From Nitrospinota bacterium (lineage in GTDB: Bacteria > 2-12-FULL-45-22 > JACOWJ01), in the NCBI GenBank assembly GCA_016176845.1, contig JACOWJ010000025.1, forward strand, positions 5,364-69,363: DNA of 64,000 nucleotides, written 5' to 3'. Positions 5,081 to 7,225 of this stretch are shown here, one piece after another. A program made the position numbers and the translations under genes. Every line of letters begins with the position of its first letter. The first letter of the stretch is position 1. A model generated the notes under the pieces. That model worked only from the letters and a program-made list of their open reading frames with translations, did no database searches and was not told the DNA's origin.

Positions 5081-7225
5081 ATGGCGCACCGATTTGCTCG
5101 CTGGTGGTTGATTGGCAACGCCAAGGCGGAGCAGGTCCGGCGGGAGGAGATATTGAACCACGCCCGCGGCGTGGTCAAGGCGGCGGATGGGCTGAAGGAG
5201 ATGAAAGTCGGCTATGCACCCGTACCGGAGATGCTCTTTGAGGTCGGAGAGATCTTTGCCGGGAGCCGGGTCGCCTTAGGGAGCCAGAGGGTCCCCTGGG
5301 AATCGGACGGGCCGCACACCGGCGGTACCAGCCCGGTTCTCCTGCGGGAGGCCGGCGTCCTTTATGGCATCATTGGACACCGGGAGGCCAGGGACGAGTT
5401 TGGCGAAGGACCTCGGATCAATCGGCAGATCATGACCGCCCTGGATTACGGCATCGTCCCCATTCTGTGCTGTGGGGAGCCCAAGGAGACGCGAACGGAT
5501 TCCGAATCCCAAAGGGAAAAGGCCCTGGAGGGGGAGATCATACCCGCACTGGAGGGGCTGTCCGCAGAGCTGCTTCTGGGGGGAGACCTGACGATCGCCT
5601 ATGAGCCGGGGCACGTCATTGGATTGGACAAACCTGCCGATATGGATTCCATCCGGTCCGGCTTCTCGCTAATCCAGCGGATACTGGCCAGGCATGGTTT
5701 GGAAGGGGTGGCTGCAAAGGGGCGGCTGCTCTATGGCGGGGGCGTGAATTCTGAGACCATCCAACAGGTCTGGAACCTGGATCAGCCCACCCGCGCCTTC
5801 TCCGGGGAGAACTGGGCCGGATTCCTGGTGGGTCGTTCCAGCGCTTCGCCGGACTTTTTGGACCTGATGGAAAAATGGCACAGGAAGCTGGGGGGTAGGG
5901 GAGCAAGGGAGCAAGGGAGCAAGGGGGCAGGGGAAAACCTTCCCCAGTCCCTGCGCTCCTCCGCACCCCTCCTTGGCCCCTCTGCTCCTCCGCGCCTCCG
6001 CCCCTCCGCCCAAATCGTCCCCGGGATTGTGCCTCCCTCCCGCAGGGTCAAAGTGGCCGTTTATGGCGTGGGAGAGGTGGGCGTGGGGTTCATCGCCGGC
6101 CTGATGCAGCAGGACAAGGTAGAGGTCGTCCAGCTCTTCAACTTACAGGTCGATGCGGAGGACCTTCGGGCCCGGATGTACAAGAGCCTTTTCTTGGGAA
6201 AGGATATGGTCCATGCCCACGGCCATACGGTCTGTGTCCGGGAGGAGATCGACCTTGAGGGAGAGATCGAGATCGACGGCGAGCCCATAGCTCTGCGGAA
6301 CCTTTTGAATGGCGCGATCTCCCCGACGAGCAAGCTCGTGAAGGTGCGCCGCCACCAGGAGATGCAGGTGACTTTGGCGGAAGACCCCAAAGAGGCCGCG
6401 GCCAAGCTGCGGGACGATGTGGACGTGGTCTTTTTCACGGCCGGGGGACTGCTCAAGGAGAGAGAGCTGCTCACTCCTTTCCTCAAGGCTGGGGCCAGGC
6501 ATATCGTGGTCAGCTCCACCAGTCAGGCATCCGATATCACCATCATCCCGGGCTTCAACCACCATCTTTTCAACCCTTCCCTACACAAGATCGTGGCCCT
6601 GGCCTCCTGCACGGGCAACTGCGGGGTGCCCATCGCGGCCATCGTGGAGGAGGAGCTGGGCAAGGGGGCGATCGTGGGGGCCCTGATCGTTACGGCGCAC
6701 TCCAAGACCAATTCCCAGCAGGTGGGGGACAAGGGCTCTGACCCCAAAGAAGAGGCCATCCTGAACAACTTGATCCTGACTTCCACCGGGATCAAGGACA
6801 TCCTGACCCGTCAGGGCTTCTTCCCTGGCATTGGCGATGCCGTGGACGCTTTCTCCGTGCGGGCCCCGGTCGAAAAATCCTCCCTCCTGGTGATGTTGCT
6901 CCAGGTCCAATGGGCTCAAGGGATGAGCCGAGAGCGGCTGCGGGAGGTCTTCCAACGGGCCGCCGCCTCGGACCGTTGGCGGGGGATCGTTAATTATGAT
7001 CCGGATCATGATGGCTCCAAGGTTTACCAGAATAGCCCGGCGGGGGCCGACATCTTTGGGAAATTGATCAACGTCTGGCCCAGTCCCTGGCTGACGGATC
7101 GAGAGGGCAACCGCCAGCGCCGCAGCGATCTTTCTACCCTGATCATACCAGCCGCCTACGCCAATGTCTACGGATACGGTCAGCAGGCCAAGCGCATCAT
7201 GCAAGTGATCGGCCAATATCTTTAG
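5081..7225 (+). CDS. Divergent triosephosphate isomerase-GAPDH-like fusion protein
   Basis: TPI-like motifs GNAK, IIGH, IAYEP, YGGGV; GAPDH-like KVAVYGVGEVG and ASCTGNC. Confidence 0.8.
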   Translation: MAHRFARWWLIGNAKAEQVRREEILNHARGVVKAADGLKEMKVGYAPVPEMLFEVGEIFAGSRVALGSQRVPWESDGPHTGGTSPVLLREAGVLYGIIGHREARDEFGEGPRINRQIMTALDYGIVPILCCGEPKETRTDSESQREKALEGEIIPALEGLSAELLLGGDLTIAYEPGHVIGLDKPADMDSIRSGFSLIQRILARHGLEGVAAKGRLLYGGGVNSETIQQVWNLDQPTRAFSGENWAGFLVGRSSASPDFLDLMEKWHRKLGGRGAREQGSKGAGENLPQSLRSSAPLLGPSAPPRLRPSAQIVPGIVPPSRRVKVAVYGVGEVGVGFIAGLMQQDKVEVVQLFNLQVDAEDLRARMYKSLFLGKDMVHAHGHTVCVREEIDLEGEIEIDGEPIALRNLLNGAISPTSKLVKVRRHQEMQVTLAEDPKEAAAKLRDDVDVVFFTAGGLLKERELLTPFLKAGARHIVVSSTSQASDITIIPGFNHHLFNPSLHKIVALASCTGNCGVPIAAIVEEELGKGAIVGALIVTAHSKTNSQQVGDKGSDPKEEAILNNLILTSTGIKDILTRQGFFPGIGDAVDAFSVRAPVEKSSLLVMLLQVQWAQGMSRERLREVFQRAAASDRWRGIVNYDPDHDGSKVYQNSPAGADIFGKLINVWPSPWLTDREGNRQRRSDLSTLIIPAAYANVYGYGQQAKRIMQVIGQYL
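5897..6010. repeat. 8-mer tandem-repeat imperfect hairpin forming the interdomain linker
   Basis: (AGGGAGCA)n followed by (CYCCTCCG)n inside the ORF. Confidence 0.7.

Follow-up and report, generated by a model that had tools for sequence, protein, structure and literature searches.

Triosephosphate isomerase (TPI; TIM for the domain), like glyceraldehyde-3-phosphate dehydrogenase (GAPDH), is one of the most conserved and most thoroughly studied enzymes. A 64,000-nucleotide stretch of a Nitrospinota bacterium genome (contig JACOWJ010000025.1, positions 5,364 to 69,363; hereafter the window) raises the question of whether a bacterium has joined the two on one chain, and what such a chain would do. 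A first-pass annotation, made from the sequence of the window, had proposed that one of its open reading frames (ORFs) encodes a highly divergent TPI–GAPDH fusion. We confirm that the product of this ORF, P0001, is a real, highly divergent TPI–GAPDH fusion. It belongs to a bacterial family that is rare, has so far gone undescribed and always carries its TIM and GAPDH-like domains in fused form.

An intact gene encoding two enzyme folds

P0001 is a protein of 714 amino acids (aa) read from a single frame, in which a TIM barrel and a GAPDH-like domain are joined by a linker that is disordered in the structural model and variable among orthologues. The features of the gene are as follows.

5081–7225, + strand: P0001, TIM and GAPDH-like fusion ORF, 714 aa, stop codon included, uninterrupted single frame
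5068–5074, + strand: Shine–Dalgarno-like GAGGAGA, 7 nt 5′ of the ATG
5102–5890, + strand: TIM-barrel domain, aa 8–270
5603–5605, + strand: codon of Glu175, which corresponds to Glu165, the catalytic base of TIM
5891–6040, + strand: linker, aa 271–320
6041–7222, + strand: GAPDH-like domain, aa 321–714, Rossmann and catalytic domain
6608–6610, + strand: codon of Cys510, equivalent of the catalytic Cys149
6698–6700, + strand: codon of His540, equivalent of His176

The translation contains each of the six motifs that the annotation had listed: GNAK (12–15), GHREAR (99–104), YEPGHVIG (174–181) and LVGRSS (249–254) in the TIM half, and GVGEVG (329–334) and ASCTGNC (508–514) in the GAPDH-like half.

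Profile searches place both halves in their families at a distance. The Pfam TIM model matches aa 10–264 with 127.9 bits (cut-off 20.1). The GAPDH-like half is recognized by Gp_dh_C (aa 517–653; 31.9 bits, cut-off 24.4), and Gp_dh_N reaches only 13 bits (cut-off 31.7). NCBIfam matches are exclusively to TPI or GAPDH models and all lie far under the equivalog cut-offs, among them NF000722 (87.6 bits, cut-off 293). The Epd model TIGR01532 gives 70.6 bits (cut-off 530.55), which is below the 112 bits obtained with the GAPDH-I model.

Structure prediction, which the annotation had suggested, recovered a TIM barrel and a complete GAPDH fold. The AlphaFold2 model, built from a 90-row alignment, has a mean predicted local distance difference test (pLDDT) score of 90. 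Residues 321–714 superpose on entire GAPDH chains with TMt values of 0.84–0.90, covering both domains of the fold. The N-terminal domain modelled alone reached a pLDDT of 91, and its best Foldseek matches are solved TPIs (TMt 0.91, root-mean-square deviation ~2 Å); an L-erythrulose-1-phosphate isomerase structure appears only at rank 48. In a separate comparison, L-erythrulose-1-phosphate isomerase gave 68.9 bits against 89 bits for true TPIs. The GAPDH-like half carries additional β-hairpin material in the Rossmann domain (around aa 377–432) and an extended hairpin (664–694) ahead of the last helix. The linker is of low complexity, with pLDDT below 50 at residues 281–306.

A rare family with one old fusion event

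A word-based search of 5.8 billion clusters returned six full-length metagenome relatives of the same architecture, 65–74% identical to P0001. Only 15 proteins (E ≤ 1e-30) emerged when 1.84 billion representatives were searched exhaustively with a profile; below them the scores fall to those of ordinary TIMs (≤113 bits). The distant fused members P0010, P0012, P0013, P0016 and P0019 span 640–735 aa, and their TIM halves all match at the Pfam cut-off. In the window clade, conservation is 67–75% in the TIM half and 68–80% in the GAPDH-like half, and the linker varies in length and sequence among orthologues (17–33% identity). As the domains are conserved while the linker varies, both halves are under purifying selection.

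The window genome's phylum, as grouped in the genome collection, is represented by only two species genomes, each of which has the fusion. The second is the sister metagenome-assembled genome (MAG) Nitrospinae bacterium RIFCSPLOWO2_12_FULL_45_22 (G001). G001 also holds a second fusion copy, 59–74% identical and spread over two contig ends (G001:C269:5425-6738 and G001:C98:3-410; loci L159 and L160), to be explained either by paralogy or by a mixture of strains within the bin. More remote fused members were identified in one MAG of Saccharibacteria (36% identity) and one of Marinamargulisbacteria (24%). None of 300 other sampled genomes of the Saccharibacteria MAG's phylum carries the fusion, so the distribution outside the window lineage is sporadic.

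No stand-alone TIM of this family was found among the 1.84 billion representatives except P0014 (273 aa), which we read as an end-truncated fragment. For the GAPDH-like half, the word-based search for stand-alone relatives gave fragments only. Two stand-alone GAPDH-like proteins of 393–409 aa, P0011 (L022:999-2180, from a Bdellovibrionales MAG) and P0015 (L075:6001-7230), nest within the window clade and have lost Cys149, His176, Asn313, the conserved Lys and glycines of GxGxxG; they are therefore probably non-catalytic pseudoenzymes derived from the fusion. A literature search found no publication on a compact bacterial TPI–GAPDH fusion, in agreement with the annotation, which knew of no characterised example.

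We placed both domains in phylogenetic trees. The GAPDH-like domains form one clade with 100% support in the Shimodaira–Hasegawa-like approximate likelihood ratio test (SH-aLRT), apart from 35 rows consisting of E. coli Epd and 34 GAPDHs (30 from sampled genomes, two from DPANN, E. coli GapA and the Gap of the window genome itself). Epd falls in with the canonical GAPDHs and not with the fusion family. The TIM domains of the family likewise fall outside the canonical TIM clade (99% SH-aLRT). The two trees share their subclades, namely the window clade, P0010 with the Saccharibacteria protein and P0013, and P0016 with the Margulisbacteria protein, a concordance that suggests a single old fusion whose halves then diverged together. 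By the annotation's own criterion, its proposal would have failed if both domains had clustered with ordinary TPI and GAPDH in a genome without other copies. Neither domain clusters in that way; the genome has a second, canonical GAPDH gene and, as described below, no other TIM was found.

Catalytic residues are kept and surrounding sites remodelled

The catalytic Asn10, Lys12, His95 and Glu165 of TIM (canonical numbering) are kept in all fused members. In the window clade their equivalents Asn13, Lys15, His100 and Glu175 are invariant, together with Glu102 and Cys130. P0001 further retains Tyr174, Pro176, Ile180, Gly181, Tyr218, Gly219–220, Leu249 and Gly251, so that, with Glu102 and Cys130, it preserves canonical Glu97, Cys126, Tyr164, Pro166, Ile170, Gly171, Tyr208, Gly209–210, Leu230 and Gly232. 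Loop 6 is unchanged in length at 11 residues. The canonical lid and phosphate gripper (Pro–Val–Trp hinge, Ser96, Ser211 and Gly232–Gly233) are not preserved as a set; for instance, Val167 is replaced by Gly177, a position occupied by Val or Ile in 54 of the 61 canonical TIMs from which residue frequencies were taken. The annotation had described altered motifs around a kept catalytic Lys, His and Glu. This holds for the three residues and for the remodelled loops, but the loop 8 'LVGR' is not unusual, since its Arg also occurs in 11 of the 61 canonical TIMs. The TIM site is more degenerate (Cys126Ile, Gly171Arg, Tyr208Phe) in the subclade whose fusion genes adjoin a canonical tpiA and is most canonical in the window clade, a pattern that fits retention of TPI activity where tpiA has been lost.

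In the GAPDH-like half, Ser148, Cys149, His176, Thr179 and Asn313 are kept in all fused members. The equivalents in P0001 are Cys510, His540, Thr543 (Thr179), Thr569–Gly570 (Thr208–Gly209), Arg594 (Arg231) and Asn695 (Asn313). Thr150 is kept except in P0016 and its Marinamargulisbacteria partner (Gly), and Thr208–Gly209 except in P0010 and its Saccharibacteria partner (Ser–Gly). Arg231 is present in every family member, the stand-alone forms included. The S-loop is five residues shorter than the canonical one and has a conserved Lys556 in the Arg195 region, a Lys that is lost only in the Cys-less derivatives. The catalytic and anion-site set of type I GAPDH (Cys149/His176, Thr179, Arg231, Thr208–Gly209, Arg195) is thus represented. 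E. coli Epd has Thr179 and Gly209 replaced; the P0001 family keeps both, and its anion sites therefore resemble those of phosphorylating GAPDH rather than Epd.

The canonical NAD site, by contrast, is incomplete. GVGEVG is kept, but Arg10 is replaced by Glu332 and Asp32 by Asn354. Across the family, most fused members have an intact GxGxxG; in P0019 and the Marinamargulisbacteria protein it is degraded. The altered cofactor site may reflect a shift towards NADP(H) or dual specificity.

The window genome lacks a detectable canonical TPI

The annotation had proposed looking for canonical tpiA and gap elsewhere in the genome. The window lies on contig C61 of a 1.53-Mb MAG (G000) that is 68% complete. 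A second, canonical gap is present on contig C59, with 413.5 bits on TIGR01534 although the contig end cuts the gene. No other TIM was found in the assembled part of G000: the Pfam TIM model, run on six frames, detects the P0001 ORF only, and an unfiltered hmmsearch of all six frames with a canonical-TIM hidden Markov model finds this ORF at E 3e-50, with the next match at E > 5.

On C59, gap is followed by pgk and then, 72 nt downstream, by secG, and tpiA is absent between the last two. As a base rate, we examined 64 metagenome pgk loci with enough downstream sequence. The tpiA gene directly follows pgk in 49 of them, and at least 13 run on into secG; pgk–secG without tpiA occurs in one (L126, Ga0208977_1000020). 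We read the C59 arrangement as a probable loss of tpiA from an ancestral pgk–tpiA–secG order. The composition of C59 matches that of G000 (GC 0.591 versus 0.584; tetranucleotides at the 38th percentile). The closest metagenome relative of its PGK is only 63% identical, with no nearer kin, which fits a rare lineage rather than contamination.

G001 encodes, in addition, a 496-aa TIM-like protein, P0009 (G001:C238; L017:5106-6596, − strand), with the archaeal-type motifs INLK, NHYEDR and VEWDEF. These motifs are split by an insert of ~100 aa, and Pfam TIM covers the first half only (48 bits). No counterpart of P0009 was found in G000.

A probable bifunctional triose-phosphate enzyme

We lean, with a confidence slightly better than even, towards P0001 being a bifunctional triose-phosphate enzyme, combining a TPI with a phosphorylating GAPDH-like dehydrogenase. 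The TIM barrel at the N terminus would catalyse the reversible step between dihydroxyacetone phosphate and glyceraldehyde 3-phosphate, and the C-terminal domain, a Cys/His thioester-type phosphorylating GAPDH-like dehydrogenase, that between glyceraldehyde 3-phosphate and 1,3-bisphosphoglycerate. Two consecutive triose steps would thereby reside on one chain, with a flexible linker between them. In the window lineage, the TIM half has probably become the cell's only TPI, because canonical tpiA is missing from gap–pgk–[tpiA]–secG. The dehydrogenase half would be a second GAPDH beside canonical Gap and may prefer another cofactor (Asp32→Asn, Arg10→Glu) or run in a different physiological direction, possibly gluconeogenic.

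The neighbours of distant members (pgk, tpiA, aldolase, enolase and glpX) point to a role in triose metabolism. Gene orders of TIM–PGK–fusion (L035) and TIM–fusion (L074) occur, and a DeoC/LacD aldolase lies immediately 5′ of the fusion in the Marinamargulisbacteria MAG (L023). The most extended context is L036:2789-14116, where genes for enolase-like (529 aa), PGK-like (501 aa), fusion P0019 (735 aa), TIM-like (364 aa), unknown (558 aa), DeoC-like (354 aa) and GlpX-like (551 aa) proteins follow one another on the same strand, beside a canonical enolase. These paralogues are divergent and N-terminally extended; the same genes are found in L037, and no common leader or tail was found among the L036 cluster proteins.

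Several observations weigh against this reading of P0001 as a bifunctional triose-phosphate enzyme. In the TIM half, Ser96 is replaced by Arg101 (Gln in one orthologue) and Ser211 by Gly221, each being Ser in 58 of the 61 canonical TIMs, and Trp168, found in all 61, is replaced by His178. The equivalog scores are low for both halves (TIGR00419, 54.8 bits, cut-off 130.6; TIGR01534, 112 bits, cut-off 367.2), and ~3.1 changes per site separate the GAPDH-like clade from GAPDH and Epd. Both the Saccharibacteria MAG and the Marinamargulisbacteria MAG have canonical TIM and GAPDH alongside the fusion, so the family does not serve everywhere as the plain housekeeping pair. Given the completeness of G000, a canonical tpiA may lie outside its assembled part; the G001 assembly lacks the whole gap–pgk region and cannot confirm the loss of tpiA, which rests on one genome. 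As to the replaced residues, TIM is active with a Trp168Phe substitution and, in Plasmodium, with a natural Phe96; the replacements in the TIM half therefore need not abolish catalysis.

The same remodelling could instead mean that a paralogous two-step module applies isomerase and thioester-oxidation chemistry to another phospho-substrate pair, such as tetrose phosphates or another short phospho-sugar, which we consider rather improbable. The changes to the phosphate gripper and lid (Ser96Arg, Val167Gly, Trp168His, Ser211Gly), the shortened S-loop and Asp32Asn would suit a different ligand, as would the long branches of both domains outside the canonical clades, the presence of the fusion beside canonical TIM and GAPDH in genomes of two other phyla, and the setting of the L036 fusion in a cluster that consists entirely of divergent paralogues and adjoins a canonical enolase. 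P0001 is, however, the sole TIM found in G000, where tpiA is missing from pgk–secG; the residues of its Ps and Pi sites are of GAPDH type rather than Epd type; true TPIs match at least as closely as the L-erythrulose-1-phosphate isomerase structure; and the family has no conserved link to pdx or tetrose genes, its other members adjoining pgk, tpiA, aldolase, enolase and glpX. The annotation's suggestion of a tetrose or erythrose-4-phosphate substrate is accordingly not supported: Thr179 and Thr208–Gly209 are kept, and Epd scores 70.6 bits to 112 for GAPDH-I. On a wider scale, the family, rather than being glycolytic TPI/GAPDH, might stand at the centre of an undescribed phospho-sugar pathway with substrates or a cofactor of its own, a 'shadow' lower glycolysis or gluconeogenesis assembled from deep paralogues like those of L036. 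We hold this to be unlikely; if true, the window lineage has either taken up the family in place of tpiA or manages with no classical TPI.

Activity might also be confined to the TIM half, acting as a TPI, in which case the GAPDH-like half, not being a physiological GAPDH, would act in scaffolding or regulation, or as a dehydrogenase that is non-phosphorylating or altered in some other way. G000 has a canonical Gap, little of the Gp_dh_N signature is left (13 bits), with Arg10Glu and Asp32Asn, and P0011 and P0015 persist without Cys149, His176 and Asn313, so the fold is of use even without catalysis. Yet every fused member has Cys149, His176, Thr179, Arg231 and Asn313, most have GxGxxG, and the GAPDH-like domain is conserved like the TIM half (68–80%), which leaves this explanation distinctly improbable. 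A merger of two neighbouring genes by assembly or frameshift error deserves almost no credence. We found no evidence for it beyond the low-complexity, disordered linker, and the frame is open without stops. At least 12 independent sequences, which differ in sample and phylum of origin, have the identical architecture, and the only stand-alone TIM of the family, P0014, is read as a truncated fragment. This recurrence in independent metagenome proteins, with conserved domains and a variable linker, argues that the fusion is not an assembly artefact.

As a bifunctional triose-phosphate enzyme, P0001 would be the second independent case of the TPI and GAPDH steps on one chain. Its replacement of near-universal residues (Trp168, Ser96 and Ser211 of TPI; Asp32 and Arg10 of GAPDH) offers a natural test of which are needed, and canonical tpiA has apparently been displaced in one deep, barely sampled phylum. 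Metabolic reconstruction calls for caution here, as equivalog models would score the G000 MAG as TPI-negative.

Comparison with known fusions and multi-enzyme proteins

Mitochondrial TPI–GAPDH fusions are known from stramenopiles and other eukaryotes (Liaud et al. 2000; Nakayama et al. 2012, PMC3527533). They share with P0001 an N-terminal TIM and a C-terminal GAPDH on one chain and the same two consecutive reactions (for P0001, as proposed here), and by features they are the nearest large ESM Atlas clusters (0.91 and 0.89). Their halves, in contrast, are of canonical type. P0022, a protein of the eukaryotic type, shares 63% identity with E. coli GapA and 49% with a canonical TIM, and its TIM half lies inside the canonical clade. 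In the same comparison the GAPDH-like half of P0001 is 25% and its TIM half 31–35% identical, and both lie outside the canonical clades. The bacterial fusion thus arose independently of that of eukaryotes; it also lacks a targeting peptide and differs in hallmark residues.

Canonical TpiA (PF00121, TIGR00419) and type I GAPDH (TIGR01534) have the same folds as P0001, which contains all their catalytic residues; P0001 differs in the replacement of Ser96, Val167, Trp168, Ser211, Arg10 and Asp32 and in the constant fusion of its domains. The PGK–TPI of Thermotoga (NCBIfam NF010569) is likewise a bacterial TPI fused to a neighbouring glycolytic enzyme, and its model is the best NCBIfam match of the P0001 TIM half (105.8 bits, far under the cut-off of 883), but there the partner is an N-terminal PGK, a domain that P0001 lacks. 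E. coli Epd (TIGR01532) resembles the GAPDH-like half in being a divergent member of the GAPDH family, and acts on another phospho-aldehyde; it clusters with canonical GAPDH and, unlike the P0001 family, has lost Thr179 and Gly209.

Giant Omnitrophota proteins with TIM and other glycolytic domains, the closest published precedent in bacteria, have been described, with no mention of GAPDH or of a compact fusion (West-Roberts et al. 2023, bioRxiv 10.1101/2023.11.21.568195). Like P0001, they are bacterial chains with glycolytic modules. Three giant multi-enzyme proteins of 1,800–3,900 aa (P0021, P0023 and P0157) also matched our profile; in P0023, TIM is followed by GAPDH, and two of the three have hydrophobic leader-like N termini. 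Their modules are 35–53% identical to canonical enzymes and 23–29% to the P0001 domains. Kinship of the fusion family with the Omnitrophota or other giant proteins was rejected, as these modules are of canonical type.

Genomic context of the fusion gene

The P0001 gene lies 63 nt downstream of a SpoVG-like gene and upstream of a sigma-70-family gene. Fusion orthologues have mutually unrelated neighbours, which fits a stand-alone gene of housekeeping type. The annotation had also pointed to a nearby pdxA and a class II aldolase, and this part proved weak. The pdxA gene (16240–17244) is paired with rsmA and lies 9 kb from the fusion, with genes on the opposite strand in between (one for an S49 peptidase and those for E2, E1-beta and E1-alpha of a 2-oxoacid dehydrogenase). 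The aldolase-like ORF (50728–52137, + strand; 469 aa) lies 43 kb away and matches only very weakly, with 49.7 bits on Pfam and 28 bits on TIGR00167 (cut-off 215.6); it is the sole PF01116 match in G000. Neither pdxA nor an aldolase was called beside the fusion orthologues on L018 and L019. In view of the distances, the intervening opposite-strand genes and the unrelated orthologue neighbourhoods, we rejected a link of the fusion to either gene. A DeoC-family aldolase fragment was noted at the end of contig C28 (L156).

Exact sigma-54-type −24/−12 motifs (TGGCAC-N5-TTGC) occur on the + strand of the window at 415–429, 7575–7589 and 58274–58288, where 0.09 would be expected by chance. The motif at 7575 lies 66 nt 5′ of the sigma-70-family gene (7656–8816) just downstream of the fusion. 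The window also encodes SelA, the L-seryl-tRNA(Sec) selenium transferase (47417–48877, + strand; 608 bits), so the organism probably makes selenoproteins.

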